From the IMG/VR virus record IMGVR_UViG_3300028602_000006: 64,000 bases of DNA. One strand, given 5' to 3'. This document shows positions 45,076 to 63,824 of the stretch, piece by piece. Every line of letters starts with the position of its first letter. Position 1 is the stretch's first letter. Source of the DNA: a virus. Its lineage: Duplodnaviria > Heunggongvirae > Uroviricota > Caudoviricetes. The notes under the pieces are model-generated. The model had not been told where the DNA came from. It searched no databases and saw only the letters and a program-made list of their open reading frames with translations. A program made the translations under genes and the position numbers.

Positions 45076-45366
45076 ATGAATAAGCTGCTAATAGAAGGAA
45101 CAGATTTAACGCTTGATATACGTCGGATGGATATCTTAGCTATAATTCCTCAATCTAAGCATAAAGAGGCTCATAAGGCATGTGGGTTAAATATCTCTAT
45201 TGATTATGATTTTGCTGAACGTGCATTTGAAGAACATATGAATAGGGTTATCGGGGGTGGTGATTGGGTACGTTGTATTATTGAATATGATGATTATCGC
45301 ATTCCTATAGATATTCATGGTGGTAATATTAATAAGAGTTATTTTGGCTATATTTTGTTCATTTAG
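45076..45366 (+). CDS. hypothetical protein
   Basis: TGTATAAT just upstream; TAG stop. Confidence 0.55.
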   Translation: MNKLLIEGTDLTLDIRRMDILAIIPQSKHKEAHKACGLNISIDYDFAERAFEEHMNRVIGGGDWVRCIIEYDDYRIPIDIHGGNINKSYFGYILFI

Positions 45367-45723
45367 TTTAACTTCCTGAATTAAACCATCGCTAACGGCT
45401 TTATTGAACATAGATTTGCCAGAGTCAGTGAAGTCAGTGCTTACGAAATCATTTCCTATTCCGACTCTATTGAGGAAATCATGGAACAGTATATATCCGA
45501 ATCCCTTTTTATTTGAATGTATCGTGATAAAGTAGGGGAGATATCCTTCTTTGAAATCGGCGGTATAGTCTACATCGGATTCATTCTATCCGCTATAGGA
45601 TTTATTTAATATTCCGTCGATCAGGAGGTTTTGTTCTTCTTTGGTGGAATCGGTGGAAATTTTAATCCATCCCGTTTGTTTACCTATAGACTGCCATTTT
45701 GATTTTGACAGTTTAATTTTCAT
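45187..45723 (-). CDS. leader-bearing gene with in-frame TAG at codon 46 (readthrough candidate or pseudogene)
   Basis: GGGAG RBS; MKIKLSKSKWQSIGKQTGWIK...YSG[TAG 45588-45586]NESDV...KKGFGYILF...DFTDSGKSMFNK. Confidence 0.65.
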
Positions 45724-45835
45724 ATTATTCTCCCATATTGATTGTGTTTTATTCAAAAAATAGAATTAAAATAACCTCCTTCAATGTTCTTCAAGGATTT
45801 AATTTGAGATTTAATGAAGAATTTATAGGTGACAA

Positions 45836-46675
45836 ATGATTTCTTTAAGACAAATATTATTGATTTTTATATTACTATCGTGTTTATCGTGTTCGGCTAT
45901 TGCGCAAATTATAACTCCTTTTCATGTACATGCTCCGGGACCCATTGTTGACGAATTTAATCGAAATTTATTAGGGACTGCAAATAATCCGCAAGACAAG
46001 GTTTTGATATTACGGGCAGAGGGGGGTATATTCCCATCGCAACAAGGTGGTATTCCAGATCCAAGGAATCCTCAAATATCAGGGGGAGAAGGTGGCATTG
46101 GGAAATTTACTTCTAGGTCTCAAGATAATACTGGGCGATTTGGCTTAGTAATTGGAAGCACTAATAGACCTCCGCATGGGATAAAAGTATTTGCGAGAGT
46201 TTTTAATGATCCGGTTCCATCTAGAGCTACTTTTTATGGGGATTCGCAAATTTTTACAATTAATTACAACGATGTATTTGTGGTAGAGTTGGGCAAAACA
46301 GATAAACCGATTTACCCTGAAGATTCTGATGGAGATGGGTTAAATGATTCATGGGAGATGAGTTTAGATACTGACCCTATGGATATTGATACAGATAACG
46401 ATGGATATACTGATTACATAGAATTTTTATCTGGCAGGAATCCATTAGGAGAGGATAAGGATATATTAATTACCGGTATTGCGAGATTGCTTAACGATTG
46501 GTATGCTATAACGTGGGAATCGACAATAAATGCAAGATACATTATTCAGTCGTCAAGTGATTTATTGATGCCATTTGAAGATATTTCTGGGGTAATTACT
46601 GCGATAACAGAGGTTACGACAGAGAGTGTTTGTGACACCAATGAGATACAGTTTTTTAGGATAAAGCAGGAATAA
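45836..46675 (+). CDS. secreted protein with TSP3-like Ca-binding repeats
   Basis: Signal peptide; DSDGDGLNDSWE, DTDNDGYTDYIE; C-terminal ITW.S...Y.IQSSSDL...FFRI. Confidence 0.75.
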   Translation: MISLRQILLIFILLSCLSCSAIAQIITPFHVHAPGPIVDEFNRNLLGTANNPQDKVLILRAEGGIFPSQQGGIPDPRNPQISGGEGGIGKFTSRSQDNTGRFGLVIGSTNRPPHGIKVFARVFNDPVPSRATFYGDSQIFTINYNDVFVVELGKTDKPIYPEDSDGDGLNDSWEMSLDTDPMDIDTDNDGYTDYIEFLSGRNPLGEDKDILITGIARLLNDWYAITWESTINARYIIQSSSDLLMPFEDISGVITAITEVTTESVCDTNEIQFFRIKQE

Positions 46676-46713
46676 GAGAGGATTATAGAAACGAATATTG
46701 GAATTATTTTAAT

Positions 46714-46998
46714 ATGAAAATAAAAATATCAAAATCTAAGTGGGAAGAAATAGGTCGCAAGGCTGGATGGATAAAAACGGCTGGTGGATGGAAATATTAT
46801 TCTGAAGAACTATCTGACATTATAGAAGGTGCGATTGGGGTTGGAATCAGAAACAATGAAACTGAATCTGAGATATTCAATAGAATAGTTAATGACAAAT
46901 CTTTACTTGAATTAATGGGTCAAGAAGATATGTCATTAGAAGATCTTAGGGAATGCATTCAAGACAATATAGAGACGTATAAGATTACTGGTTATTAA
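46714..46998 (+). CDS. hypothetical protein with ISKSKW..IG..AGW leader
   Basis: Leader motif; AGG-N19-GAA promoter. Confidence 0.7.
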   Translation: MKIKISKSKWEEIGRKAGWIKTAGGWKYYSEELSDIIEGAIGVGIRNNETESEIFNRIVNDKSLLELMGQEDMSLEDLRECIQDNIETYKITGY

Positions 46999-47357
46999 TT
47001 GTTCTGGTTCGGATCTTCAACAAATACATAGCCCATAATATTTTGTTTTCCCAAGGCATTAGCGACAGCGATTCTATGTTTGCCATCAATAATTTCCCAG
47101 TCGTAATTTGGGCCTAGTGTAACAATTGGCATATCATTTACCTTGGACGTATCCATTCCCTCAAAATCTGTCCAGTATGGGAATACAGATAGCGGAATGC
47201 TTTGGAGAACGTATTTGCCTCCATACATAACCATATGTTTTGCATCTGAATAGTCTATCTCGCCTCCGCAATCTTGGGCGTTATTACATAAAAAGTCTAT
47301 CATGCCATCAGACGATAATTCTTGTGGCCATGTTTTTGATAACTTATATAATTTCAT
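46995..47357 (-). CDS. ParB/Srx-like domain protein with MKLYKLSK leader
   Basis: PIVTL...WEIIDGKHRIAVA. Confidence 0.65.
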   Translation of the reverse strand: MKLYKLSKTWPQELSSDGMIDFLCNNAQDCGGEIDYSDAKHMVMYGGKYVLQSIPLSVFPYWTDFEGMDTSKVNDMPIVTLGPNYDWEIIDGKHRIAVANALGKQNIMGYVFVEDPNQNN

Positions 47358-47527
47358 TATATAGAGCTTGGATAATTCAGTTTCAATATCATTTCATTAA
47401 TATTTTGATAGTTTTATTTTCTATAAATATAGCTCTTATTCCTTTTTGGTATTACATCTCGCATGATTCGCAAGGGAATTCGTCTGGCATTTGTGAATAA
47501 TATAATCAAGTGTATTGTGTATAAATT

Positions 47528-48223
47528 ATGAAAATATTAAAAACAGCAAACAATAAAAAATTAAAGCTTTCGAAAAGAGAGTGGGAAGTTATAGGCAAGA
47601 AAGCTGGATGGATTAAAGTTTCTGCTGATGAGCGGGATTTAAAGACGTTAAAGCAGCTCATGGATAGTCCTATGTTTTTAAATGCAATTTTGAGCGGGTC
47701 AGATGAATATTCCGCTAATATTCAAGAGGCCGTTAAATCAGTTATTTCCAATTGGGACGCTTTGGTTCGAGCTAAGACATTGCAACAGACGCAAGGGATT
47801 GAATTAGAAGAGGGTATGCCATTATCGGCGAAGAAAAGGGGTAAAATTTTAATAACCTCTCAGAATCAAAGTACAGACGACAGGGGAATGATTGATCTTC
47901 TGATTAAAAAATTAGAGGGATTGAAAAACAATATTCGTCCGGGGCAGGAAACATTAAAAGATGATATCAATGAATTTTCAAATAAAATAGATTCTATTAT
48001 TGGCTCTAATAGCGGGCAACCATCTTTACTAACACCGGGTGCGCCCGTAAATGTAACGATGATGGAAGGTGGCGGAATATATAAAATAGACACAGTAAAT
48101 AGCGATGGTACAGTAGTAGTTCAAGATGAGATGAATCGTCCTATGACTGTCAAGCAAACCAGAATTTATGGGCTTAATGAGCCGAAACCTAAAACGGATG
48201 CGATGGGGAATATAAAGAGATAA
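47528..48223 (+). CDS. hypothetical protein with MKILKTA...LSK..W..IG..AGW leader
   Basis: Leader motif; AGG-N19-GAA promoter. Confidence 0.7.
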   Translation: MKILKTANNKKLKLSKREWEVIGKKAGWIKVSADERDLKTLKQLMDSPMFLNAILSGSDEYSANIQEAVKSVISNWDALVRAKTLQQTQGIELEEGMPLSAKKRGKILITSQNQSTDDRGMIDLLIKKLEGLKNNIRPGQETLKDDINEFSNKIDSIIGSNSGQPSLLTPGAPVNVTMMEGGGIYKIDTVNSDGTVVVQDEMNRPMTVKQTRIYGLNEPKPKTDAMGNIKR

Positions 48224-48228
48224 TGTAT

Positions 48229-48708
48229 TTACTCTTCTTGTTCAAATATAACTGATATATCAGAACAAATAACTAAAGAAGATCCTATACCGAATAGATC
48301 TGCCATTAGATCTCCTACATCGAGTCTATTCTCGGTTGTAATGACATCTATTTCTTCTAAAGCTTCATAAATTGCATCGAAAGCGTTGGATATGATTCCT
48401 TCTGAGACTCCTTGATCTCTAAGTTCTTTTTGTAATCCAGTTTGATAAGCTCTCATAAATCCCTCAAGATGGGCGGATGCTGCGTTAGAGGCTGTGGAAG
48501 ATACCATAGCCAGAGTGAACAGAGGTTTGGATGCGATAGCATGATATTGTTTATCTATATCGAAATTTGTTTTAATTTCATTCTCAAACAATCGATTATA
48601 TAGGGTGGTAAAATCATCGGTTTCTCTTTGATTTAATGTAGAGCATCCAACCATCAAAATTGTCCCTAAGAGTATTAATATTGTTTTATTCATAATTATC
48701 CTTTCCAT
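48229..48708 (-). CDS. putative lipoprotein
   Basis: Signal peptide with ILMVGC lipobox; start may be 48693. Confidence 0.65.
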   Translation of the reverse strand: MERIIMNKTILILLGTILMVGCSTLNQRETDDFTTLYNRLFENEIKTNFDIDKQYHAIASKPLFTLAMVSSTASNAASAHLEGFMRAYQTGLQKELRDQGVSEGIISNAFDAIYEALEEIDVITTENRLDVGDLMADLFGIGSSLVICSDISVIFEQEE

Positions 48709-48833
48709 TTAGAATTTAATACATTATACAATCGTTTATAGGCATAGTGGGAGGATTAGGGCAAATATATTTTGAAATAAGAGGTTGTAATATAGTAAGA
48801 AATGGTAATGATTTTTATTCGCAAGATATTTTT

Positions 48834-51800
48834 ATGAACACATTTGATGATTTTATTAGATTAGCGTTTGCCAGACAAATTTGGAGTGATTTTCAAATTG
48901 GGTGGAAGGACGTAAATTTAATTAAAAAATTTGCAGTTCGATCTAATGGAATTGGCTCCAGAGAAAAAGAGTCATCTTGGGATAAACTAGAGAAGCTGAA
49001 AGATAGGGATGATATTTTTCTTTCATATATTAGTGAATTAAAAGATCCTCCATCGCCAAGAGGGGAGCGGACTCCTAGGTATCCAAAAATAGGAATCAAT
49101 CCCAAAAGTCATTACAATACTCCATTAGGTGTTTATACATATCCAATAAAAGAAATTTGGGGAAAACTTAGTAAGGGTGATTTATCAAATGTACCTTATC
49201 AAGGGGAGAAGCCCTACATTGCTGTTCTTCAACTCAGAGAGGGGAAAAAGTTCGTACAGGACATGTATAAAGATTATGATTCATCTGATTATGATGATGA
49301 TAGAAAGAAACTGCATAATTATTTTGTTCCGAAGGTATTATCAGAAGAAGAATTTAATCAAGTTGTAGACAAAGCTTCTCAAGAATCTTCTGATAAGAAT
49401 CCCATCACATCAATGTGGAATATTGCTCGCTATTTGGCCTATATTATTGTTCAATTCAAAGATAGAGATGTTGACAGAAACGCTATTTTAGATAAAGTAA
49501 AAGAGTATGGGGTATCATATCTAATGCCCTATAAAGTGAGGGGAAAATTAAACCCTTATGGATTGATTTTTAATAGAATTTTAAGCGACGATGAAGTTTT
49601 GGGTTATGCCGGATTTGCCGACCGTACTGGAAAGTCATACATTCACTCTGGTGAACCAATACAGGCAATTTTTCTAGATCCAAGCGGGTATAATGTTTTA
49701 GATATATTGCCGAATGAAAGTTCTGATGAGTATATCCCTTTAAATCCCAAAATAGAGGATGGCATTGAACTTACGAAAAAAATGCAAGATAATAGAATTC
49801 GCAGTAAAATACGTTCTTTTATTGAAAAGATGGGGGCAGAAAATATATCGGAGGATGTGTGGCGTCAAATTTTAGCTGGTCACCCCGATTTCATAAAGAG
49901 TTGTCCATATAAAAATTTGTTAGATGATCCATCAATTATAAAAAATCTCGATAAGTATTGGAGTAAAAAGGCCTTATTTGGCGATATAATCAATTTCAAT
50001 CCAGAAGAAATACCCATACATATTGATAAACTGCCGGAAACAAAAAGAGCGTTAAAAGAGGCATGGGAAAGAAATATTAAAGAAGATCCCACGGGTTTTA
50101 AATATGCTCCTGATTATGTTAAAAATGATCCGAGAATGGGGAGAGCGCACAAGGAGGGATGGGAATCATATTTAATGAAAGCGCCTATGTCTTGGAATGA
50201 TTGCCCATTTGAGGAAGTAAAGAAAAATAAAAAAGTCATTGAAAAAGCACAAGAATATTTCATAGACAGGATAAGATATGATGTAAGGGATTATGCATAT
50301 GTTCCAGAAGATTTAAAGAATGGAGAGTTGCATGAAAGTGCTGTTTTTGAATTTATAGAGCACATTAAAAATGATCCTACGTATTATTTATCCCCCAATC
50401 TTGAGTCGTTAAGATCAGAGCCTCGTGTATTGGATATTGCACGAGAAGAATGGAAGACGTTAATAAAACATCAACCAATTCAATTAGATAGACTGCCCAA
50501 GGAATTGAAAGAAGAATCCGACGGGGGCGCTATATATAGGGATATTGCCAAAAATACTGTTATGGGATGGATTAATAGTGAAGATCCTGTAAACTCTTAT
50601 TATGGGGAGGGGGGATATAATTGTAGAGTGCCAAAAGAATTAATGGAAAAAGACAAGGATATATTCAATGCTGTTATTGAGAAATGGGTTGAATTAATAA
50701 GAACAGGGGATATCTATATAGCGAAGGAAACGCCCAAGGATTTACTCAATATTCCACAGATTATAGATCAATTGAAAAAGACTTGGAAGGCGTACATAAT
50801 GGATCATCCTTACTCATTAGAGTCTTCTCCATTTCCTGAATTACAACATGACGAAGATATATGGAAATCTATTTTGAGTAATGAAGAATTTAGTGGTGAA
50901 TTCTGGCCAAGCTGTCCATTTGAATATATAAAAAATGACCCAAGAGTTATAGAGATTGCAAGAAATTGGTGGATAGATGCTTTAAAAAAAGATATTTATT
51001 TGATACAACAATTACCATCTGAACTAGGTTTGGATAATCTTCCGTCGATAAAAAAGATAAAGATAAAATACATCAAAGAGCGATCTAAACACGATCCTCG
51101 TTCGGTAGATACGCAAAATCTTGACGAAGAAGAAAGAGAAGCTTGGATGTCTGGGGCGAAATACCATGCAAAAACGTTTCCAGCGCAGGCAATGATTTTT
51201 AATGAAAGCGAGAGGCTTGAATTAATGCAAGACCCGCTTATAAGAAAAACATGGTTCAATACGTGGAAGAATATAGCCGTTTCAAATTGGGAAGATAAAA
51301 TTGAAAATCCTTTCGGTCATGCGCTTTATAATGATCCGGAAGTTATAAATAAAATTAGCGATTATATAGAAAAAGAGTTAAGTTATGGAAATCCCGTCGA
51401 AAAATGCGCAATTGATGGGCTTATAGAAAAGGTTAAAAATGATCCAAAATTACAACAGAATCTTTTAGAGCGATGGAAAAATGAAATATCCTCCAGTGAC
51501 CAATATCGTATTGATAAAGTGTATGATATTGCTATTGATAGATTCGCTTCAGACAAAGAAGCCATTAAAGAATTAAAGGGTGTTTACTTTAACACATGGG
51601 CGGAAATGGCCAAAAATAGTAGTTTGTTACATCTTGAATTGACTCCTATTGTGGTGGATTATTTTTCCAAGAGGCAGGATATGAGAGAATGGCTTATGGA
51701 TCAATGGCTAAAAGTGGCTGATAGGACAAAGATTTCTGATAATACGTATTTCGGCGGTGCTTTTGTGGGCTATAATACTCCCCCTTCTTTTGTGCAAAAC

Positions 51801-52076
51801 GATCAAAGATTCATTAATGTATTGGAAGATAATAGGTGGTCATATTTCTTGAGGCATTCCCCCAGCAAATTGAATGAGGTTCCTCCCGAGGTTATGAACT
51901 TGCCTAAGGTGAAATATGAAATAGAAAAAATAAACGCATCAAAAGGTTCTAATGAAATCCATACAGAGGAGCCGGCAGCTGCGCCATTGGAAACTGGAGA
52001 AAAAGATATACAAGCATCATCTCAACGAACATTATGGGCAAGCACTTTTAACGATAATGTAATAATTAATATATAA
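48834..52076 (+). CDS. large protein: globular N-domain plus Trp-rich helical repeats
   Basis: NPKSHYNTPLGVYTYP...EPIQAIF; repeated (C/S)PF..(I/L)K.DP.V units; ATG 48834 preferred. Confidence 0.75.
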   Translation: MNTFDDFIRLAFARQIWSDFQIGWKDVNLIKKFAVRSNGIGSREKESSWDKLEKLKDRDDIFLSYISELKDPPSPRGERTPRYPKIGINPKSHYNTPLGVYTYPIKEIWGKLSKGDLSNVPYQGEKPYIAVLQLREGKKFVQDMYKDYDSSDYDDDRKKLHNYFVPKVLSEEEFNQVVDKASQESSDKNPITSMWNIARYLAYIIVQFKDRDVDRNAILDKVKEYGVSYLMPYKVRGKLNPYGLIFNRILSDDEVLGYAGFADRTGKSYIHSGEPIQAIFLDPSGYNVLDILPNESSDEYIPLNPKIEDGIELTKKMQDNRIRSKIRSFIEKMGAENISEDVWRQILAGHPDFIKSCPYKNLLDDPSIIKNLDKYWSKKALFGDIINFNPEEIPIHIDKLPETKRALKEAWERNIKEDPTGFKYAPDYVKNDPRMGRAHKEGWESYLMKAPMSWNDCPFEEVKKNKKVIEKAQEYFIDRIRYDVRDYAYVPEDLKNGELHESAVFEFIEHIKNDPTYYLSPNLESLRSEPRVLDIAREEWKTLIKHQPIQLDRLPKELKEESDGGAIYRDIAKNTVMGWINSEDPVNSYYGEGGYNCRVPKELMEKDKDIFNAVIEKWVELIRTGDIYIAKETPKDLLNIPQIIDQLKKTWKAYIMDHPYSLESSPFPELQHDEDIWKSILSNEEFSGEFWPSCPFEYIKNDPRVIEIARNWWIDALKKDIYLIQQLPSELGLDNLPSIKKIKIKYIKERSKHDPRSVDTQNLDEEEREAWMSGAKYHAKTFPAQAMIFNESERLELMQDPLIRKTWFNTWKNIAVSNWEDKIENPFGHALYNDPEVINKISDYIEKELSYGNPVEKCAIDGLIEKVKNDPKLQQNLLERWKNEISSSDQYRIDKVYDIAIDRFASDKEAIKELKGVYFNTWAEMAKNSSLLHLELTPIVVDYFSKRQDMREWLMDQWLKVADRTKISDNTYFGGAFVGYNTPPSFVQNDQRFINVLEDNRWSYFLRHSPSKLNEVPPEVMNLPKVKYEIEKINASKGSNEIHTEEPAAAPLETGEKDIQASSQRTLWASTFNDNVIINI

Positions 52077-52099
52077 GTCTTCTGTATAATACAGGGGAT

Positions 52100-52402
52100 A
52101 TGTCAACTCAATTTATAGCTAAGCCTAGAGATAACATGGATATGGTTTTCTCTGCGCCATCCAAACCGTCTTTAGTTTGCGGGATACGGTGTGTAACTCG
52201 TTCAAATAAACATATTGTGTCGATTCCGTTTTCTTCATATAAGCAAGGGGATTATAAAACAGCAAATAACATTAGAATGTATGGGGTTAGAACTCCAGAA
52301 CATAGTAAAGTAATGGGACCATTTGACGGAGTTATGGATGCGTTTGATGATATTCCAAAAAAAATTGTTAAAAATAATATTTTGAAGAATTTTCAAAACT
52401 AA
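52100..52402 (+). CDS. hypothetical protein
   Basis: TGTATAAT and GGGG upstream. Confidence 0.6.
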   Translation: MSTQFIAKPRDNMDMVFSAPSKPSLVCGIRCVTRSNKHIVSIPFSSYKQGDYKTANNIRMYGVRTPEHSKVMGPFDGVMDAFDDIPKKIVKNNILKNFQN

Positions 52403-52422
52403 GTAACGGGGGCGGAGGATAT

Positions 52423-52695
52423 ATGCCGATAGTAAAATTTTTTCCAGAGGATGAAGATAGGACTTATGAAATACAAAAGTATCGTAAGGAATTGAATAAA
52501 AAATATAAAAGAGGCGCATCATCTGAGTTTATCCCGAATCCAAATCCCCCTAATGTTAAATTTCCTACGCCGTTAGATATTGTGGGAAGTACAGACGGTA
52601 AATTGAACGGTTATATTGGCTCTATTCCTCCGCAAGATAAATCGTTAATTAGAGCTAAAATTTTAACTTGTAATCCAATTGTTTGCAATGATTAA
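52423..52695 (+). CDS. hypothetical protein
   Basis: GGAGG RBS. Confidence 0.6.
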   Translation: MPIVKFFPEDEDRTYEIQKYRKELNKKYKRGASSEFIPNPNPPNVKFPTPLDIVGSTDGKLNGYIGSIPPQDKSLIRAKILTCNPIVCND

Positions 52696-52707
52696 GGAGA
52701 TGCGAAA

Positions 52708-52938
52708 ATGACACTGTTAAAATGGAAACACGAAAATAAATCAAATGAATGGATTGATAATGAGCATGGATGGGCAATCAATAAGAATGATGTCCCCGAA
52801 AGGCCGTACCAACTATTATCCAATGGAATAAATTTAGGTTCATTAAATAAATTAGCATCTGCAAAACAGTTGGCAGAACTTGCAGAGTTGGGTGAAATAT
52901 ATATTGAAGAGCCAAAGGCGGAAGAATTATCCCAATAG
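52708..52938 (+). CDS. hypothetical protein
   Basis: AAGGAG RBS. Confidence 0.65.
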   Translation: MTLLKWKHENKSNEWIDNEHGWAINKNDVPERPYQLLSNGINLGSLNKLASAKQLAELAELGEIYIEEPKAEELSQ

Positions 52939-52942
52939 TTAA

Positions 52943-53866
52943 TTATTGGAAAAGAAGTTGAAGCCATTGCTCCATGGGAGGTATTTGTTTTGGCCATAAA
53001 AATGCCTGAAGATATTTAGAGGCTTCGTCTATATTCCAAGATTTAATTATTTCCAATATTTTATTAACTGGCCATCCATGATCATCGGCCAATCTTTTCA
53101 GAAAATCTGTTGCATCAAATTCATCTTCTGGCATATACACTTTATTTTTTATATCGATATGCTTATTTTCCATTGTTTCTTTACCGTCAAATCCCTTTCG
53201 TTTGCTATATTGATATTGTTGGATGAAATCCTCTCTCGCCAGTTCTTCCCATGGGTCTGAGATGAGAGGCGTATCTTCATGTTTTTGAACCCAAAATGAA
53301 TTGATTCTTGACGGATTAAGATTACCGATAAATAGTGCCTGATATTCTCTTGGAGCCATAAGCATTTCCGCAAGTTCAGGACGGCTAGAATTTGCAATAG
53401 CCTTATATTCTGATTGTTTTGCTTTCTCTCTTTGTTTTAGGATTGCTTGTTGACGCTGTTCATCTAACTTATCCCAGTCCCAATATTCCGACATGCCACC
53501 TTGAACTGTATATCCGCCTCCCGGCCATACAGGGATTTCCAGTTCTTTATATCGGCAAGTGAATTCCATAATAGCCCCAAAAGTAGTGAAGTCCTTAGCT
53601 GTTTCGAAGTTTGTTGTTATAAACAGACCTTTAGGGTTATTATTGCTTTCATAGGAATAAACTCTTTCTGCCACACTTTGTCCGCTTAGTCCGTGTTTTG
53701 CCGTTATTATGGCATCATTCATATCTCTGAAGGCATGATAAACACGCAACTCATCATCTTCTTGAAACGCTTCTTGTTTTTCAATAACTTTATAGAAGAC
53801 ATTTTCGGCGTTATCAAATCCGAATTCTCTTCTCTTATTTTGGGCAATTTTATACCAAGATATCAT
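52943..53866 (-). CDS. MISWYKIAQ-leader protein with possible ADP-ribosyltransferase fold
   Basis: LRVYHAF / KGLFITTNFETAKDF / EYQALF pattern. Confidence 0.55.
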   Translation of the reverse strand: MISWYKIAQNKRREFGFDNAENVFYKVIEKQEAFQEDDELRVYHAFRDMNDAIITAKHGLSGQSVAERVYSYESNNNPKGLFITTNFETAKDFTTFGAIMEFTCRYKELEIPVWPGGGYTVQGGMSEYWDWDKLDEQRQQAILKQREKAKQSEYKAIANSSRPELAEMLMAPREYQALFIGNLNPSRINSFWVQKHEDTPLISDPWEELAREDFIQQYQYSKRKGFDGKETMENKHIDIKNKVYMPEDEFDATDFLKRLADDHGWPVNKILEIIKSWNIDEASKYLQAFLWPKQIPPMEQWLQLLFQ

Positions 53867-53945
53867 AATGTGTTAATTTCTATCTTATTGCTATGGAATC
53901 CTTGATTTTAGAGGGCAAATCATTTGTTTTTTAGAATTAATATAA

Positions 53946-54134
53946 ATGAATTTTAGAGAAAAAATAATAGTGATTGCAATAGCGGCTATATTATCGGGAT
54001 GCGTTACGGCTAGGAACCCATCAGATATACGTCCGCCTTTAATGAATGATCGTACATTTACAAATTTTGTACCCACTATTGTAACTAATGAACTGCCATC
54101 AACAAATTATTATATTCAAAATGGGGGATTTTAA
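53946..54134 (+). CDS. small lipoprotein
   Basis: AILSGC lipobox. Confidence 0.65.
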   Translation: MNFREKIIVIAIAAILSGCVTARNPSDIRPPLMNDRTFTNFVPTIVTNELPSTNYYIQNGGF

Positions 54135-54841
54135 TGCTATTAGATCATTTGAGATACAGTAAGACTAATTTTGAATCGGGGGGACTATTAGATGAGCCTG
54201 ATATTCGTGCCAAACGCATAATAATGAGGGTTCCAGAACAATTTATAGCTCCACGAAGGATTGATTCAAGAGATATGTGTTTAAGTTCAAGTAACCAACA
54301 GCAAACGCCGCACTGCGCTGGATACTCTGCCGCTGGATATATTGAATTTCGCAATTGGAAAACCTTGCACTATCCTGCGCAAGTTGATGGTGATAAGATA
54401 TATGAAGAAGCCAAGAAGATTGACATGAATAATCATCCGGGAACAACATTGATATCTGTGGCAACAGCATCAATTAGTTTAGGGTTGATAAAAGGGAAAC
54501 CCCAATATGTTGCGTACCCAGAGATTGAGGGATCAGCGATGGATAGAAAGTTAAAAAGAATAACATCCATAAAGTTTGCCCTACATCAATATGGTGTTGT
54601 TTTGGCCGGATTTAGGATTACGGATGAATGGGATTGGGTCGATAAAAGGAATGGAATGATTAGAGATTTAGGAGATAAGGCGATAAACCGTGGCGGACAT
54701 GCAGTTTTGCTTTGTGGTTATGATGATATGGGCGTTTATATACAAAATAGTTGGTCCGAAAAATGGGGCATCTATGGGTTTGCATGTTTAAGTTGGGATC
54801 AATACGATAAACAGATCATGCAAGCTATGATTATTGATTAA
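54134..54841 (+). CDS. papain-like C1 cysteine peptidase
   Basis: NQQQTPHCAGYS, GGHAVLLCGYD, IQNSWSEKWG. Confidence 0.85.
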   Translation: MLLDHLRYSKTNFESGGLLDEPDIRAKRIIMRVPEQFIAPRRIDSRDMCLSSSNQQQTPHCAGYSAAGYIEFRNWKTLHYPAQVDGDKIYEEAKKIDMNNHPGTTLISVATASISLGLIKGKPQYVAYPEIEGSAMDRKLKRITSIKFALHQYGVVLAGFRITDEWDWVDKRNGMIRDLGDKAINRGGHAVLLCGYDDMGVYIQNSWSEKWGIYGFACLSWDQYDKQIMQAMIID

Positions 54842-54923
54842 TGATAACCTTAAATAATGTGCTTCTTCCGCTGAGCCTGTGGACAATATTGCAATATTCT
54901 TTAAATGACTCTTCATCGAGCGT

Positions 54924-56208
54924 CTGACATACTCCCACGGCTAAAGACCGTGGGGTTCTAGTTTCCTTTCGGAAATAAAGTCTTTGCCCAGACTTTTTAT
55001 TAAAGCAAATTGTTTAATATTGTTAGCAGCATTTATGTCTCTATCATGATTTGTTCCACAAGAAGAACATTCCCATTCTTTTTCTTCTCGTTTTAATTTT
55101 TGATAGATATGACCACAAACAGAACATCTTTTACTAGATGGTTCAAATCTTCCAATAACTAAAAGATTTTTACCACTATCTTCACATTTATATTCCATCA
55201 TTTGTCTAAACATTCTCCATCCCGCATCTCCTATGGCCTTAGACATTGGTGCGAAATTTTCTTGTTCCATTTCTTTTACTGCTAAATCCTCCATAGCATA
55301 ACTTGTCCAGTCTTGGTTCTTGACTAAACTTGTTGTTAATTTATGGAGAAAATCTTTTCTCTGGCTTCTAATTTTTTTGTGTATTCGTCTTACTTTCTCC
55401 TTTTGTTTTTGATATACTTTTGTGTCTTTATTCTTTTTACTAAGAATCTGTTGTTCTTTTGCTAATTTGTCTTCATACTTTTTGAAATGTTTAGGATTAT
55501 CTATTTTTGTGTCATCTGAAAATATTGCCAAATGAGTTGTCCCTAAATCAATTCCTAGTGTTTTGCTTTCTTTGATTTGTGAAGGCTGTGGGGTTTCTAT
55601 TCCTTCATCATAACAAATTGAAGCATAATATTCTGTTCCTTCTCTTGAAACAGTTATGTTTTTAAATGCACAATCTTCTGGAGCATTAAATTTATCTATG
55701 AATCTTATCCACTTTAGTTTTGGAAGTTTAATATGCTTTTTGTCTTTAGAAATTTCAAAGTATTGTGGAACACGAAAAGATTGTTTTGGATTGTGTTTTG
55801 ATTTGAATTTTGGAAATTTATTGTTTTTCTTGAAAAAGTGAGAAAAAGCAGAGTCTAAATCTTTTAGGGTTTGTTGAAGTGATTGGGCATTAACTTCTTT
55901 TAGCCAAGGTTTTTCTTCATACATCTTTGGAATATCTTTTTGAATTTGATAAACAGAAATTGATTTTTTGGTTTCTGTGTATGTTTTGGATTTCGTTTCT
56001 AGTCCATAATTATAGATAACTCGGCAACAACCGAAATGTTTTTCGATTAATTCTTTCTGCCATTTTCTAGGATATATTTTGACCTTTATCGCTTTCACAT
56101 TTTTATTATACATTAAGTTATTAACTTTTTCCTCTAAAAAAGTTAAAATAATTGAAATGTTCGCTTTCATCCTACGACTGAAGATCGTAGGCTTTCCCGC
56201 TCGCCTTC
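54924..56208 (-). mobile_element. IS200/IS605-family (tnpB-only, IS1341-like) insertion
   Basis: LE hairpin CCTACGAT-CTTCA-GTCGTAGG after AAAG; RE hairpin CCCACGG-TCTTTAG-CCGTGGG ending GTCAG; no tnpA; junction uncertain by 2-3 nt. Confidence 0.85.
54941..56113 (-). CDS. tnpB: TnpB RNA-guided endonuclease
   Basis: HTH KIYP..WQKELIEKHFGCCRVIYN; LGIDLG, AMEDL, CSVCG..CSSC, DRDINAANNI; ATG 56113. Confidence 0.92.
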   Translation of the reverse strand: MYNKNVKAIKVKIYPRKWQKELIEKHFGCCRVIYNYGLETKSKTYTETKKSISVYQIQKDIPKMYEEKPWLKEVNAQSLQQTLKDLDSAFSHFFKKNNKFPKFKSKHNPKQSFRVPQYFEISKDKKHIKLPKLKWIRFIDKFNAPEDCAFKNITVSREGTEYYASICYDEGIETPQPSQIKESKTLGIDLGTTHLAIFSDDTKIDNPKHFKKYEDKLAKEQQILSKKNKDTKVYQKQKEKVRRIHKKIRSQRKDFLHKLTTSLVKNQDWTSYAMEDLAVKEMEQENFAPMSKAIGDAGWRMFRQMMEYKCEDSGKNLLVIGRFEPSSKRCSVCGHIYQKLKREEKEWECSSCGTNHDRDINAANNIKQFALIKSLGKDFISERKLEPHGL

Positions 56209-56343
56209 GTAAATTCATTGGCCTGAGATTGTCGCAATGGAAGTTTGATTTTTTTGCCCATTGATTCAAGCTTTTGACTAAAAGATTCTAATTGAACATC
56301 ATTCATGCTTGTATTATCCATAAAATTAGTTATAATAGTCTAT

Positions 56344-57036
56344 ATGACAAAAATTTACATAACAGGAGATATACATGGAGATCCGTTTAGGTTTTCTACA
56401 AAAAAATTTCCAGAGGGTAAAAAATTAACCAAAGAAGATTATGTCATTGTCGCTGGAGATTTCGGGATTATTTGGAAGAACGATTCTGGAAGAGAAGAGC
56501 AATATAAACTCAAGTGGTTAAGAGACAAACCTTGGACTACGCTGTTTGTGGACGGGAACCATGAGAATCATGAGCGTTTAGATATTCTGCCGACTGAAGA
56601 AAAATTCGGAGGCAAGGTGGGAGTAGTATGCCAAGATGTATACCATTTGAAACGTGGCGAAATATATCAAATTGGAGGGAAATCGTTTTTTACTTTTGGG
56701 GGGGCGCACTCTACTGATAGAGAAAGTAGAAGAATAGGAGTATCTTGGTGGGATAGAGAATTGCCCAATTATGCAGAAATGGATTATGGGTTAGGGCAAT
56801 TGGAGAAGGTGAAATACTCAGTCGATTATATTATTACTCACACAATCCCCCGATCTTTAATTGAAGTCTTAGGATTTTCAAAAAGACCGATAGAAGGTGA
56901 TGACCCAACCATTAAATATTTAGATCATATCGCTCACGCAACTACTTTTAAGAAGTGGTATTTTGGGCATATGCATGTCGATAGGGACTTAGGTAAATTC
57001 AGAGCGCTTTACGAGTATATTGACGAGATTATGTGA
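56344..57036 (+). CDS. calcineurin-like metallophosphoesterase
   Basis: GDIHG, AGDFG, VDGNHE, THT, YFGHMH. Confidence 0.88.
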   Translation: MTKIYITGDIHGDPFRFSTKKFPEGKKLTKEDYVIVAGDFGIIWKNDSGREEQYKLKWLRDKPWTTLFVDGNHENHERLDILPTEEKFGGKVGVVCQDVYHLKRGEIYQIGGKSFFTFGGAHSTDRESRRIGVSWWDRELPNYAEMDYGLGQLEKVKYSVDYIITHTIPRSLIEVLGFSKRPIEGDDPTIKYLDHIAHATTFKKWYFGHMHVDRDLGKFRALYEYIDEIM

Positions 57037-57364
57037 TTTTTGGATCTAAATCTTTGATTTTTGGATCTAAATCTTTTTCAGGGATATATTCCGCTCCGGT
57101 TGCCTCCCCCATCATCGATGATTGAAATCTATTTATATATCTCCCTTTATTTGTGAGAAATAGGTCTATTGCTCCGCTATATGTCATATCATTACCGTCT
57201 TTATCGACCAGTTCATCATCGGAGTTTATTATTGCATAGCCTTCCTGAATGGCATTTTGCAAAGCTTCTGCATGGTTTCTTCCCGTAAAGAATTTTCCTC
57301 CGGCATAAATGGCGGCGGCGATGGGATACTCTCTGTCTTTGGATGTTTTGTACCAAGATTTCAT
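57029..57364 (-). CDS. MKSWYKTSK-leader hypothetical protein
   Basis: Leader; FFTGRNH..FLTNKGRYINR; C-terminal KDLDPKI x2 from 21-bp duplication 57034-57075. Confidence 0.7.
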   Translation of the reverse strand: MKSWYKTSKDREYPIAAAIYAGGKFFTGRNHAEALQNAIQEGYAIINSDDELVDKDGNDMTYSGAIDLFLTNKGRYINRFQSSMMGEATGAEYIPEKDLDPKIKDLDPKIT

Positions 57365-57450
57365 GCGATATATTTCTTTTTGGCAGGGGAATGAACCTTT
57401 TTAAGAGAATATAGGTAATAATATCTTATAAAACACATGGAGTATAACAC

Positions 57451-57900
57451 ATGAAAATATTAAAGACAGCATCTGGCAATAAACTTTCTATTTCAAGGAA
57501 AGAATGGGAAGCGATGGGTATTAAATCGGGGTGGTTGACTTCTCGCTATCGTGGGCCGGGCAAAGGGACGAGCGAAAAAGAAGTTACTCTTTATCGTGAC
57601 TCTAACGGAACAATATCTTTAATGGAAGATGAAGGTACTCCTTTTACAGCATTTATTGAATATTCCTATTCTCCCGCTGAAAAAGCTGAATATGAAGGTA
57701 GTTTGATGACTTATCCGGGGGCAAGCGCATCAGTAGATATAATTTCTGTAAAGGATGAGAATGGAAACGAAGTTCCAGTTGACCATGAATCTTTATCAGA
57801 GACATTTGATCTTGTGAATGAATATGAGAATGTTTCAGAGTCTGCTTATGAAAATGCTATGGATGCGAAACGTGAGGATAAGATTCTAGGTAGTTACTAA
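57451..57900 (+). CDS. hypothetical protein with MKILKTA...ISRKEW..MG..SGW leader
   Basis: GGAG RBS; leader. Confidence 0.7.
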   Translation: MKILKTASGNKLSISRKEWEAMGIKSGWLTSRYRGPGKGTSEKEVTLYRDSNGTISLMEDEGTPFTAFIEYSYSPAEKAEYEGSLMTYPGASASVDIISVKDENGNEVPVDHESLSETFDLVNEYENVSESAYENAMDAKREDKILGSY

Positions 57901-58208
57901 AATTTCCCCTGTTGCCATCTTTTTTCTCTCTCATTAAGCCATTCTTGTTCAGCTTCTTGCTTTTCTTTTCGAGTGTCTTTGTACCGAAGAGTTTTTAGAA
58001 GATCTACAGATGGAACTCTTCCGAATTTTTTCCCAGAAGATTTCTCAATTTGTTCTAGAAAAGAATTTGCATCTTCATGGCTTTTGAAGAGGGGGATATT
58101 ATATTTGTAGAGTTCTCTTACAGAAAATACTTCATCGCCCTCTTCGTCATAAAGCATCCCATTTTCAAGTAAGTATTCTTCGGATTGAGCTAATTTGTAA
58201 ATCTTCAT
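57897..58208 (-). CDS. MKIYKLAQ-leader hypothetical protein
   Basis: ATG 58208 just after AGG-N19-GAA. Confidence 0.65.
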   Translation of the reverse strand: MKIYKLAQSEEYLLENGMLYDEEGDEVFSVRELYKYNIPLFKSHEDANSFLEQIEKSSGKKFGRVPSVDLLKTLRYKDTRKEKQEAEQEWLNEREKRWQQGKF

Positions 58209-58276
58209 AGGTAAATAATTCACAAAATAATTATGTTTTACCTTTAGAATGTTACACATTATGTATAATATCAAAT

Positions 58277-59062
58277 ATGAAAGTGATTGTTTTAGGCAAA
58301 GGGTATCTAGGATCTGAATTCGAGCGGAATGGATATGATGTTAGAGGAAGAGGTTTCTTTAACGCTCAATCTCTTCATAATATGCCTTTATCAAAATTAG
58401 ATGACTTCAATATTATTATTAATTGTATTGGGAATAGCGATACTAGGTGGTGCGAAGATCCTAGAAATTTTGAAGAGGCTATGTTTGTAAATGCGTATGT
58501 GCCTAAAATTTTAAGTGATTATTGCAAATTAAATAACAAAAGGTTTGTGCATATATCAACTGGATGTCTTTATGACAAGAATAATAGCAGGGAGAACAAT
58601 AATCTCGTTTCTCATTGTAATTATACAGTTACAAAATTTGCCGCTGAGAGGTTAATAGATCCATCTAGAGACCTTATCATTCGCCCTAGGTTATTATTCA
58701 GCGATGTAGTAAATAAAAAGAATTTGTTAGTAAAGCTACCTAATTTCAAGCACTATATATATGATAAGTGGGATAGTTTAACATGTACAACTACTATCGT
58801 TGAAGCGGTACAAAGCTTATTAGATAATGATCAGGTTGGAGTATTTAACGTTGCAAATGATGGTAATGCATCTATTTTTGATATTGCATCTTGGTGCGGA
58901 TGGGCAGAATATACTAAAATAATTGGAATAGAAGATTTAAGGGCGGAACAAGGTTTATATCTTGTTAATAATACGATGAGGCTGGAAAAGTTAAAGCAGT
59001 TTTACCAACCGCCAAAATTAAAAGATATTGTAATTGATTGTTTTAGCAAGCTATATGTCTGA
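58277..59062 (+). CDS. NAD-dependent sugar reductase/epimerase (RmlD-like SDR)
   Basis: VIVLGKGYLG, FVHISTGCLY, YTVTK. Confidence 0.8.
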   Translation: MKVIVLGKGYLGSEFERNGYDVRGRGFFNAQSLHNMPLSKLDDFNIIINCIGNSDTRWCEDPRNFEEAMFVNAYVPKILSDYCKLNNKRFVHISTGCLYDKNNSRENNNLVSHCNYTVTKFAAERLIDPSRDLIIRPRLLFSDVVNKKNLLVKLPNFKHYIYDKWDSLTCTTTIVEAVQSLLDNDQVGVFNVANDGNASIFDIASWCGWAEYTKIIGIEDLRAEQGLYLVNNTMRLEKLKQFYQPPKLKDIVIDCFSKLYV

Positions 59063-59064
59063 TT

Positions 59065-59646
59065 CTATTTTACTCTTCCCAACTTCCAGCACTTCCTGCA
59101 AACAGCGATATAAGACTCATTTCCTCCGGTTTGTATTTGTACGCCAGTTTTAATTGCCTCTCCATTACTTAGACGAAGATTGCAGTTGGCTTTTCTTCCG
59201 CAGTGGCACATTGTTTTTATTTCTTGAATTGAATCCGAAAGTTCTATTAGGCGTTTACTTCCTGTAAATAATTTATTTTTAAAATCAGTTTTCAATCCAT
59301 AGCATATAACGACGATATTGAGAGTGTCTACAATATCACTTAGTTGTTCAACTTGACATTTTGATAGAAACTGAGCCTCTTCGACAATGATAAGATCTAT
59401 TTTTTGTTTCTTAATTAGTTCTGATACTATCTCATAGAAATTTGTATCTTCATAGATCACAAGATCAGCCTTCGCCTCTATTCCAATTCTTGATTTTATC
59501 ACGCCGATGCCATCTCGATCATCAATTGAGGAAGTCGCCAGCAGAGTATTCATGCCCTGCTCTTTGTAATTAAAATTTGTAATCAATAGTTGTGCGGTTT
59601 TGGCGGCTCCCATAGCGCCATAATAAAAATACAATTTTGCTTTCAT
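59065..59646 (-). CDS. tdk: thymidine kinase
   Basis: YGAMGAAKT, IVEEAQF, YGLKTDF, CHCG, YIAVCRKC. Confidence 0.92.
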   Translation of the reverse strand: MKAKLYFYYGAMGAAKTAQLLITNFNYKEQGMNTLLATSSIDDRDGIGVIKSRIGIEAKADLVIYEDTNFYEIVSELIKKQKIDLIIVEEAQFLSKCQVEQLSDIVDTLNIVVICYGLKTDFKNKLFTGSKRLIELSDSIQEIKTMCHCGRKANCNLRLSNGEAIKTGVQIQTGGNESYIAVCRKCWKLGRVK

Positions 59647-59680
59647 TGGATTATTATACAGCCTTCCAAGCAAAATTAGA

Positions 59681-60124
59681 TTAATCTAATCCGAATACAT
59701 TGTCAAATAAACCGCTTAGGTTAGGTACTTCCGCTGGATCAATATTTTCATATACTTCTGTATTTATTTGCATATCAGAAGAGTCAACATACGTTGGTTC
59801 AGGTTCTATATAATCATACTTATCTCTTAAAGCAGTGAGACGATTAGATTCAAGAGAATGGTCGTAATTAGCAAAACTTGGATGGGTTTCAGTCTTTTGA
59901 TCAAGCTCGCCAACCTTTAACTTAGTTGGTATACTTATGTAATCGCTGCAATTTTGAGAACGGTTGAGTTGCAATTTCGCTTTAGTTATCCATCCATCAT
60001 GTATTTGAGATGCTTTGTCGAAGACTTCTTGCCTCTTTTCTTCAAATGCGTCGATACCACCATGAGGAGCGTAAGTTTGTTCTATAAAAGCGTCCATCAT
60101 TTTGCTCATATCATATGCCTCCAC
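59681..60124 (-). CDS. hypothetical protein
   Basis: 147 aa ORF; start uncertain. Confidence 0.65.
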   Translation of the reverse strand: MEAYDMSKMMDAFIEQTYAPHGGIDAFEEKRQEVFDKASQIHDGWITKAKLQLNRSQNCSDYISIPTKLKVGELDQKTETHPSFANYDHSLESNRLTALRDKYDYIEPEPTYVDSSDMQINTEVYENIDPAEVPNLSGLFDNVFGLD

Positions 60125-60579
60125 ATGTCCTGATGAGTCTTATACCAATTAGCAAGATAAACTTGTCCGTCTATTTCCCCTAGCCTTGTTCCGTCAACGG
60201 CAAGGGAGTGCTGATTATCTTTGCATCGTTCGCATCCGAAGAGATCGTAATATCTCCCATTTTTTTGATATCCATTTTTTAAACAACTCCATACTCCCCA
60301 GCAATAAGGGCAGTATTCATCATTACAGAACCCCCACGCTTCTGGATCGTGGCTGTATGGTATTTCTTCTCCATCGCACCATTTAATGAGATCTTTTGGA
60401 TAGCGAATTGAGTTTGCCCAAACTTTAGATTTCCCGCAGGAGCATTTCATCAATTGCCCCGGGTTAAAATGATGTTTTGGATTATTTATTATATCTGTTA
60501 TTTCTAGGAGCGTATTGCAAAGTTCACAAATATAGCTTCCATCTTTGGCGAACTTCCATGCTATTCGATACATTTTCAT
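60106..60579 (-). CDS. MKMYRIAW-leader multi-Zn-finger protein
   Basis: CELC, CSCG, CPYC, CERC. Confidence 0.7.
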   Translation of the reverse strand: MKMYRIAWKFAKDGSYICELCNTLLEITDIINNPKHHFNPGQLMKCSCGKSKVWANSIRYPKDLIKWCDGEEIPYSHDPEAWGFCNDEYCPYCWGVWSCLKNGYQKNGRYYDLFGCERCKDNQHSLAVDGTRLGEIDGQVYLANWYKTHQDMWRHMI

Positions 60580-60596
60580 TTTGCTTCTACGATATT

Positions 60597-60899
60597 TTAC
60601 TCTAAAAGATTTTTATGCTGACCATGCGCTAGCGGAGTAACAAGGACTTCATATATTTTACCGTCATTATATCTAAACCACCCTACCGAGCCATTTGATA
60701 CTAAATATGAACTTAATCTTTCGTCAAATACTCCGGATTTAGATATATCTTCGATGATATCAGATGTATGCGCTTTACCTTTCTCGCCAAGTTCCTCCTT
60801 TCGCCATTCTTGTTCCATTAGAAAGGATTCGGCTTCTGGAGATTCGAGAGGGTCTACTCCTTCATTTGAAAATGGTTGAGCTAATTTTAATATTTTCAT
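60597..60899 (-). CDS. MKILKLAQ-leader hypothetical protein
   Basis: Leader; AGG-N18-GAA upstream. Confidence 0.7.
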   Translation of the reverse strand: MKILKLAQPFSNEGVDPLESPEAESFLMEQEWRKEELGEKGKAHTSDIIEDISKSGVFDERLSSYLVSNGSVGWFRYNDGKIYEVLVTPLAHGQHKNLLE

Positions 60900-60955
60900 A
60901 ATGTTAGTATTTCAATAAAAAGGGTCAATATACCTTTCTATCGAAATAATAGTAT

Positions 60956-61357
60956 ATGAATTGGTACAAAGAACATAAAATGGTTGAGGCATTTTACTGC
61001 CTTGTCACAGAAGAAAATTATCGATTCGCCATGTCCCCATCAAGAGACTATAAAAAAATAGATCTGAAGAGGTGGGGGAAGTTGCATGCGATGTTATCTA
61101 AAATTGTTGGATTGACTTCTTCTGACCCAGATTTTCTTGATAAATTCATGGAGTTAAGCGATGTTTTCAGGGAACTTACTGATCGTTTAGGTAGATTGCC
61201 AAAAAAAGAAGAATTTTTAACTGCATGGAGATCTTGGGAACTGTATAAAGGCATGCGCCATCCAGAAAGAATAAAAGAGGAATATAATTATCCTATGGGC
61301 GGATTAACCAAAGTCCCTCAACCAGAGCAAAGTTTACCTGTTAACGCATTAGTTTAA
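60956..61357 (+). CDS. MNWYKEH-leader hypothetical protein
   Basis: Leader; AGG-N19-GAA upstream. Confidence 0.7.
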   Translation: MNWYKEHKMVEAFYCLVTEENYRFAMSPSRDYKKIDLKRWGKLHAMLSKIVGLTSSDPDFLDKFMELSDVFRELTDRLGRLPKKEEFLTAWRSWELYKGMRHPERIKEEYNYPMGGLTKVPQPEQSLPVNALV

Positions 61358-61919
61358 TGGTTGTTGATTTATCTTCGTAATCTTCAAAAATTACTTCGTC
61401 AAAATCAAATTTTAATCCCTCAAACTTTCTGTTTTTGATATACTTCTCTCCATTACCGCATTTTAGATATGCCAGCGTAACATGCGGATGATAATCCGGG
61501 AATGTGCTGGAGTGCTCTAAGTTCTCTTGGAGAGCGTAATGAATACGGTGAAGTGCCGAGCTTATTATATTGACCTTCAAAACATCGTATTCTTCTTTCT
61601 CAAACATTCCTATCTGGCCAAGTTTTACTGTGCCTCCTTTTTGCTCTTCAAGAATTTTTCTAACTTTACGAACATCTTTTGTGTGTATGCCCCATAGAAC
61701 TGTGATATGAGGATCATCTTCAACTCCATATTTCCAACCTTTTCCATGAACTACTTCACCTTTTTCTTCTTTTTTGATAAATAGTTCACGTTCAGGAATG
61801 GTTTTAGCATACTGCATTGTTTTTGATCCAATATTTTTTGGAAGACTAATACTTACCCAGCTATAGTCACGTTCTTTAGCGATTCTATCCATGCGAGATA
61901 TTTTATACCAATTATTCAT
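61341..61919 (-). CDS. 2H phosphoesterase, Acb1/T4 57B-like, with MNNWYKISR leader
   Basis: PHITVLWG and TFPDYHPHVTLAY (two HxT motifs). Confidence 0.8.
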   Translation of the reverse strand: MNNWYKISRMDRIAKERDYSWVSISLPKNIGSKTMQYAKTIPERELFIKKEEKGEVVHGKGWKYGVEDDPHITVLWGIHTKDVRKVRKILEEQKGGTVKLGQIGMFEKEEYDVLKVNIISSALHRIHYALQENLEHSSTFPDYHPHVTLAYLKCGNGEKYIKNRKFEGLKFDFDEVIFEDYEDKSTTIKLMR

Positions 61920-63242: not shown

Positions 63243-63824
63243 CTAGAGATTGATATTTTTGTTTTTATATAGATCTGACGGGCATTTTATAATTCCATCA
63301 ATCATCCCCATTTCAAGAGCTTCTTCTGCGGAAATATAAGAGTCAATCCTCATAAGCTCTTTTATTTTTGATCTTGATAACTTAGTATATTTAACAATTA
63401 ATTTTTCAAGTATACCTTGTATTTTTTTAGATTCAATAATATCGACATCCATTTCGGATAATTTACCAAATGTTCCGGCTGATAACTGGTGCATTAATAT
63501 TCTGGAGTTAGGAGTAACAAATCGCTTACCCTTTGTCCCCGACATTAGGAGCATTTGGGCGCAGCTCATTTGTTTGCCAATCCCTAACGTTATGATATCG
63601 CATCTGGTTACGTGTTTTATCACATCATGTATCGCCATAAGACTATGTATATACCCTCCGTAAGAATCAATCATTAATAATATATCTTTTGTCGGGTCTT
63701 TGGCCTCAAGAGCTAAAATTTCTGTAATAATACTTTTTGCCTTATCTTCATTGAATATTCCACTCAAAAATACGATCCTGTTTTGCTCCAAAGAATTCCC
63801 ACTTTTATCTGGCGATATTGACAT
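63243..63824 (-). CDS. clpP: ClpP-like protease subunit
   Basis: IDSYGG, MSCAQML, RILMHQ, DSYISAEEALEMGMIDGI. Confidence 0.9.
   Translation of the reverse strand: MSISPDKSGNSLEQNRIVFLSGIFNEDKAKSIITEILALEAKDPTKDILLMIDSYGGYIHSLMAIHDVIKHVTRCDIITLGIGKQMSCAQMLLMSGTKGKRFVTPNSRILMHQLSAGTFGKLSEMDVDIIESKKIQGILEKLIVKYTKLSRSKIKELMRIDSYISAEEALEMGMIDGIIKCPSDLYKNKNINL

Follow-up and report, generated by a model that had tools for sequence, protein, structure and literature searches.

A shared N-terminal peptide tag on unrelated proteins of an uncultured phage-G-like huge phage: a candidate address for loading the capsid

Twelve genes in a 64,000-nucleotide stretch of the viral record IMGVR_UViG_3300028602_000006 (Caudoviricetes) begin with a conserved peptide tag on otherwise unrelated proteins. 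This whole stretch, the window, comes from a metagenomic contig of 182,571 bp belonging to an uncultured ocean phage, whose HK97-like capsid protein (PF25209/PF05065) shares 55.8% identity with its counterpart in Bacillus phage G; this capsid protein is widespread, with 989 homologues. The shared tag is confirmed as real, and comparison of homologues supports the leaders being a portable protein-level add-on that swaps between unrelated cargo families. We infer, tentatively, that the tag is an address, that its destination is the phage capsid, and that the proteins bearing it are injected into the next host. The eight class A and four class B starts named in a preliminary description of the window are all present as written and stand at real gene starts; they are listed here with the untagged paralogue of one of them.

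17362..17694, plus strand: untagged paralogue of 57029..57364
45586..45723, minus strand: class B open reading frame (ORF), 45 amino acids (aa), stopping at TAG
46714..46998, plus strand: class B gene, 94 aa, short form MKIKISKSKWEEIGRKAGWIKTA
46995..47357, minus strand: class A gene, 120 aa, MKLYKLSK; DGxHR motif, ParB-like by reading only, no Pfam match
47528..48223, plus strand: class B gene, 231 aa, long form starting MKILKTA
52943..53866, minus strand: class A gene, 307 aa, MISWYKIAQ; predicted ADP-ribosyltransferase (ART)-like fold
57029..57364, minus strand: class A gene, 111 aa, MKSWYKTSK; AAGG...GAAAT promoter 7 nt before the ATG
57451..57900, plus strand: class B gene, 149 aa, long form; tag kept in the G1 and L059 orthologues
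57897..58208, minus strand: class A gene, 103 aa, MKIYKLAQ; promoter 8 nt before the ATG
60106..60579, minus strand: class A gene, 157 aa, MKMYRIAW; Cys-rich, Zn-finger-like by reading, no Pfam match
60597..60899, minus strand: class A gene, 100 aa, MKILKLAQ; orthologue begins MRIFRTAN
60956..61357, plus strand: weak class A variant, 133 aa, MNWYKEH; divergent promoter in common with 60597..60899
61341..61919, minus strand: class A gene, 192 aa, MNNWYKISR; 2H phosphoesterase / Acb1-like

Within the window these leaders are restricted to 45.5-62 kb, with none among the ~100 ORFs of 1-45 kb, and 9 further tagged genes lie on the same contig beyond it. MNWYKEH is the weaker variant, its core position 5 being neither A nor S, and its orthologue in the relative G1 (syntenic, with ~66% protein identity) begins MNWFKTHK. 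Orthologues of the 103-aa protein begin MKIYRLAQ, MKIYHIAQ and MKIFKIAQ.

Across 53 curated starts, the class A core reads M-(K)-(x)-[I/W]-Y-[K/R]-[I/L/T]-[A/S]-[Q/N/K], is 6-8 residues long, and occurs in two registers, MK-IY(K/R).A and MK(S/N)-WYK.A. Class B extends over ~33 residues with the consensus MK(I/L).KTA.GK.K(I/L)K(I/L)SKSEWE.IGKKAGW, in which W, G, G and W are invariant and the MKILKTA start ahead of KxKISKSEWExIGKKAGW is optional. In the best 150 database members of class B, GW is followed by [M/I]-K-[E/T/K]-A-[Q], so that the class A core recurs here. Class B is therefore an extended form that closes in the class A core, and its long version also opens with the class A-like MKILKTA. 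The two classes had previously been bridged by the MKILKTA starts; the long form does have them, and the relationship is better described by the class A core at the end of class B. An AlphaFold2 (AF2) model of residues 1-60 of the 231-aa class B protein is confident only for one helix, residues 16-26, spanning SKREWEVIGKKAG. A SpoVT/AbrB-like swapped-hairpin fold, tried as an explanation of class B, is not supported: this single helix is all that the model gives with confidence; a profile search of PDB sequences for such a relationship was empty at E values up to 10, and no Pfam family matched. Nor does the tag resemble a Sec, Tat or lipoprotein signal peptide, as it has no hydrophobic core and is commonly followed by acidic residues; genuine signal peptides encoded in the same zone, such as that at 53946-54134, differ from it.

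The strict class A pattern was found at 38 of 331 crude gene starts in the present phage and two relatives, compared to 0.16% of internal windows (binomial P ~3e-57). The same pattern in 77 unrelated viral loci (~1 Mb, many of them AT-rich) gave no WYK starts and ~6 weak matches. With an E cut-off of 0.001, a 35-position class B profile matched the representatives of 2,463 protein clusters (50% identity), the match lying almost always at residue 1, and the cargo of the best 144 class B proteins divides into 104 unrelated groups. A second, internal copy of class B is present in 18 of the best 150 matches; some of these copies start with Met, pointing to fusion of gene calls or to read-through, and others do not. 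At the level of DNA, the strict pattern MK.WYK.AQ was found in three IMG/VR contigs and 44 metagenome stretches, 20 of which look like real tagged starts, many with other class A or class B genes nearby. Among 185,579 species genomes of cellular organisms it returned 8 matches, which look like chance, since 5 are internal to ORFs and 3 fall outside the output of the ORF scan. A literature search with the tag strings returned no relevant paper, and we have not found the tag described in print.

Portability is argued from homologues with and without the tag. All 11 full-length homologues of the 307-aa protein at 47% identity or more are tagged, whereas 75 homologues at 42% or less are untagged, and W-type and I-type tags interchange among its orthologues. 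In the Acb1-like 2H family of the 192-aa protein, 28 of the 30 homologues sharing at least 36% identity carry a W- or I-type tag, and none of 16 more distant ones does. The paralogue at 17362 does lack the leader, as had been noted: from its residue 2 it aligns to residue 10 of the 111-aa tagged protein (E 8e-6). In an AF2 model of the 307-aa protein, confidence (pLDDT) is 87 overall and 41 for tag residues 1-10, so that, as modeled, the tag is disordered and outside the cargo fold. With this model as the Foldseek query against PDB, the top 50 matches were all ADP-ribosyltransferases, at E 0.012 or worse. The earlier assignment of cargo stands for the 2H protein (61341..61919; PF13563 and PF23474 above cut-off), has weak support from these fold matches for the ART-like protein, and comes down to motif reading with no Pfam match for the ParB-like and Zn-finger proteins. 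Further cargo comprises GNAT, ART-PolyVal-like and PcfJ-like proteins and cell-wall hydrolases of two families; the tagged proteins are single-domain, short of the two or more domains of a polyvalent protein. That the tagged genes often stand in tandem could suggest that all descend from one ancestor of which only the N terminus is still recognizable. We consider this exceedingly improbable, and for the families tested it is refuted by cargo of different families and folds (2H, ART-like, GNAT, PcfJ-like, lysozyme, Hydrolase_2), by untagged homologues of the same cargo, and by the spread of the 144 class B proteins over 104 groups. The earlier proposal of a targeting code is upheld to the extent that a portable peptide on unrelated cargo resembles a targeting or docking code.

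Codon choice within the tag is free. Serine is encoded by AGT, TCA, TCG and TCT, arginine by all six of its codons, alanine by all four, and leucine by TTA, CTA, CTC, CTT and TTG. Because every codon family is used, selection acts on the tag peptide rather than on the DNA. This bears on a further explanation, in which the conserved start would reflect a constraint on the mRNA or its initiation, such as leaderless first codons or a recombination cassette that unites promoter and start. Most of the 12 window genes are solitary behind AAGG-N19-20-GAA(A/T)(A/T)-N7-9-ATG without a Shine-Dalgarno sequence, often in divergent pairs, and the AAGG...GAAAT layout precedes the genes starting at 53866, 57364, 58208 and 61919 (all minus strand) as well as 12 tagged genes in relatives. 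One such pair serves two tagged genes:

60900..60955: divergent promoter pair, AAGG-N19-20-GAAAT-N8-9-ATG, serving 60597..60899 (minus strand) and 60956..61357 (plus strand)

With the ATG 7-9 nt past the promoter element and no Shine-Dalgarno sequence, these units probably give leaderless mRNAs. The tag codons of stand-alone genes would then form the 5' end of the mRNA, as a constraint on initiation would have it, the ATG lying at that distance from a -10-like GAA(A/T)(A/T). Synonymous sites are nevertheless free, even between AGT and TCN for serine and between AGR and CGN for arginine, and the same peptide heads genes that have a GGAG ribosome site and are translationally coupled in operons. 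Varied codons, and the presence of the tag on both leaderless-type and GGAG or coupled genes, make a nucleotide or initiation signal very unlikely, and this explanation is largely refuted. Head genes and the tagged operon near them have TGTATAAT-type (TATAAT-type) promoters and GGAG ribosome sites. The view that the tagged effectors are made late is consequently unsupported for the window genes, which have AAGG-type promoters of their own. The promoter copy ahead of the gene starting at 61919 is an exact tandem duplicate, and the G1 orthologue of a trypsin-like protease gene has the AAGG...GAA(A/T)(A/T) cassette too.

The case for the capsid comes from outside the window. The contig was followed beyond it in steps to window-equivalent coordinate 118,156 (extended coordinates hereafter), which brought in the head module:

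Extended 87305-90316: terminase
Extended 90464: tagged gene, 333 aa, between terminase and portal
Extended 92878-96285: portal
Extended 98582-104206: protease-scaffold protein, 1874 aa; G1 orthologue with N-terminal head-protease domain
Extended 105045-105911: capsid gene
Extended 106054-108156: homing endonuclease/methylase insertion (a LAGLIDADG plus methylase gene), directly after the capsid gene
Extended 108869-113269: six tagged genes in one operon, 3 kb past the capsid gene

A 1864/1874-aa protein carries the head protease as its N-terminal domain. In the six-gene operon a class B gene comes first, followed by GNAT, ART-PolyVal-like, 797-aa and other proteins, and in G1 tagged genes stand immediately after the capsid gene, with 11 consecutive ones further along. 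Part of the tagged set therefore adjoins head genes, and the cargo (ART, ParB-like, GNAT, 2H) has domains in common with polyvalent proteins, for which packaging and injection are predicted, with T4 Alt as a packaged precedent (PMC5512222). Because a tagged operon lies so close to the capsid gene and the cargo is typical of injected effectors, the reading that we put forward, while conceding that it is more likely wrong than right, is that the tag loads enzymes into the phage head in the manner of the T4 capsid-targeting sequence (CTS) and that the tagged proteins are then injected. We speculate that, in one clade of huge phages related to phage G, a disordered peptide of 6-8 residues, or the ~33-residue version that adds one helix, has been placed ahead of effector-type enzymes that stand alone. 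One shared partner would recognize all tagged proteins and would most likely be found inside the prohead, as the protease-scaffold protein of 1874 aa or as the capsid shell. The tagged proteins would be enclosed in the head and would enter the next host along with the DNA. The motif [KR][ILVT]A[QKN] occurs 5 times in the protease-scaffold protein of G1 and 4 times in that of the present phage, compared to 0.9 expected (P 0.002, post hoc), and 3 copies are conserved between the two; this excess of tag-like motifs could be taken as weak support for capsid loading.

The T4 CTS of IPI-III and Alt, which the preliminary description had cited, is indeed the closest described analogue: 10-20 conserved residues at the N terminus of diverse, fast-evolving anti-host and anti-defence proteins that are often encoded in variable clusters (PMC3012670, PMC5694885). 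The tag shares with it the defining feature of a conserved N-terminal peptide on unrelated proteins, and, like T4 Alt, several of the present cargoes seem to be ADP-ribosyltransferases (PMC5512222). In contrast, MKTYQEFIAE and the tag have no sequence likeness beyond MK.Y, the T4 sequence ends in an (L/I)xE protease site, and the present phage is HK97/phage-G-like rather than T4-like, with an extended 33-residue form and with putative packaging. The ejection-protein propeptides of SPN3US and phiKZ likewise belong to huge phages whose heads contain many internal proteins; gp53 and gp54, two SPN3US paralogues, are identical over their first 15 residues, and in one ejection protein the propeptide is followed by a membrane segment (PMC5694885). 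Those propeptides, however, are mostly longer than 100 residues and are cut at AxE or SxE as shown by mass spectrometry, whereas the tag has 6-8 residues and is known from sequence. Polyvalent proteins have overlapping effector domains (ART-PolyVal-like, ParB-like, GNAT) and their delivery together with the DNA is likewise a prediction (PMC5512222), but they join 2-15 domains in one polypeptide, while here single-domain proteins are each tagged. Given the HK97-like capsid of this phage, a further parallel is offered by encapsulins. In these, unrelated enzymes are loaded by a short peptide at one terminus that binds to the inside of the HK97-fold shell; that peptide has another consensus and is usually C-terminal.

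Several observations weigh against capsid loading. A survey for a cleavage site after the tag found A-x-E in 8 and A-x-D in 8 of 53 starts and no uniform site. The tagged set is large, numbering at least 21 genes over 118 kb of this contig and ~30 over 94 kb of G1, and the 12 window genes differ from the head genes in promoter class. The one clear polyvalent-type protein of the window, an anti-restriction type with ArdC-N and MPTase-PolyVal domains (41901-42827), is untagged, and ArdC-type anti-restriction proteins are normally transferred with DNA. A tagged cell-wall hydrolase (Hydrolase_2; extended 67136-67786) has a Gly/Ala-rich membrane segment behind its tag; its relatives retain both tag and segment, and G1 has a Phage_lysozyme domain behind them instead. 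With its membrane segment, this protein could be a lysis enzyme that is released from the membrane and not packaged. Finally, the analogous tag of phage G is scattered across the whole genome, with no clustering at the head module.

The WYK and IYR tags are absent from phage G (JN638751), which has an N-terminal tag of its own, (M/L/V)KRL[IFMV]KK[SAG], on ~25 genes genome-wide. K-R-L-x-K-K occurs 10 times compared to 2 in the control, all 9 of the 9 cases checked lying at codon 2-3 of annotated genes (gp17, 38, 57, 126, 213, 345, 346, 351 and 610), and the looser start-K-R-L-x-[K/R] occurs 27 times compared to 4. Two of the tagged phage G proteins carry (F/M)HGT motifs resembling the ART-PolyVal-like cargo of the present phage. 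One tagged protein, gp346, has been reported in the particle proteome, against a base rate of 104/668 (PMC12484599), which is weak support for capsid loading. Because phage G can be cultivated, its MKRLIKK tag makes the question of what these tags do testable at the bench.

The genome-wide spread of the phage G tag, along with the separate promoter class of the window genes, would also suit a tag that docks its proteins on some other shared partner, such as a host machine, a phage chaperone or adaptor, or the membrane. The evidence for a portable, disordered add-on selected as a peptide fits such docking equally well, and the internal second copies in 18 of the best 150 class B matches suit a binding module over a strictly terminal signal. 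We rate docking elsewhere as rather unlikely all the same: it leaves the tagged operon beside the head genes unexplained, and no candidate partner was found, the sole neighbor checked for linkage being unlinked to the tag:

54134..54841, plus strand: papain-like cysteine peptidase, PF00112 (24.6 bits, cut-off 20.7), with Cys61, His189 and Asn205 invariant

As a dedicated tag peptidase this enzyme was rejected, since homologues at 50% identity occur in three other phages without tags within 8 kb. It is preceded by the 62-aa predicted lipoprotein at 53946-54134, the pair being conserved in relatives, and in G2 the peptidase forms the C-terminal part of a 571-aa protein.

A different shared reader is suggested by a second peptidase near the tagged genes:

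63243..63824, minus strand: phage ClpP homologue, PF00574; Ser/His/Asp seen by sequence reading

This gene lies in the tagged zone, has an apparently intact triad and is conserved in G1 and G2. The tag might thus be an N-terminal degradation signal, read by a Clp unfoldase working with phage ClpP for the timed removal of potent effectors. ClpX N-motif 1 consists of polar, hydrophobic, hydrophobic, basic and hydrophobic residues, and K-I-Y-R-I and S-W-Y-K-I would fit this consensus. Phage G encodes both ClpP and ClpX (PMC12484599), and the tag is predicted to be disordered, as are the N-terminal motifs 1-3 that are read by the single machine ClpX (PMC12723719, citing Flynn 2003). Against such a signal, no ClpX is among the Pfam matches of the 118 kb read, and the large proteins of the head-proximal operon are tagged as well. 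Degrons are, moreover, usually loosely defined, whereas the tag is sharply conserved over thousands of clusters, including the 33-residue class B module with its extended helical form. A degradation signal consequently appears to us improbable.

Returning to capsid loading, a broader proposal would be that phage-G-like huge phages use a short N-terminal code to load dozens of separate effectors (ART-like, acetyltransferase, 2H/Acb1-like, ParB-like) into the capsid, from which they would be delivered along with the DNA. This would amount to an unbundled form of the polyvalent strategy, in which the dialects of individual clades (WYK.AQ/IYR.AQ, KISKSEWExIGKKAGW, MKRLIKK) co-evolve with the head interior; we regard it as possible but doubtful. 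If the tag is an address label of any kind, it marks a large hidden set of proteins, mostly of unassigned function, that huge phages handle together and whose membership is visible at a glance, class B alone heading 2,463 protein clusters. If the capsid is the destination, the tag would flag enzymes of the first seconds of infection, including the Acb1-like protein as a candidate for counter-defence, and would offer a simple way to package foreign proteins in large phage heads, a use to which the T4 tag has already been put.

The capsid protein was the only link to phage G among the queries run against cultured phages; in INPHARED there was no match for the DNA of 45-53 kb, the 94-aa class B protein, a 1080-aa protein or a consensus-like class B leader. 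A search of the relatives for PF03420 (the T4 gp21 family) and for T4-type capsid families gave no match, and the controls of these searches gave no signal either. Three mobile-endonuclease features lie in or next to the head module; the terminase has intein (Hom_end_hint) matches and the portal gene has DUF559 endonuclease matches. Three TnpB / IS605 OrfB-like genes are also present on the contig (1515-2603, 54941-56269 and extended ~68.6-69.8 kb). The 45-aa class B ORF ends at a single in-frame TAG (45586-45588), and read-through to 45187 would give a product of 178 aa, of which ~80 further residues are protein-like with no Pfam match. A tRNA with anticodon CTA is encoded at 17730-17805. Recoding of TAG was considered as the cause of short ORFs and rejected: a reading in which TAG is a coding codon gains little, and the standard genetic code was therefore kept for the window. 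The untagged left part of the window encodes an RNA ligase (11193-12314), RtcB (15877-17130) and a WGR-PARP protein (20676-21974).

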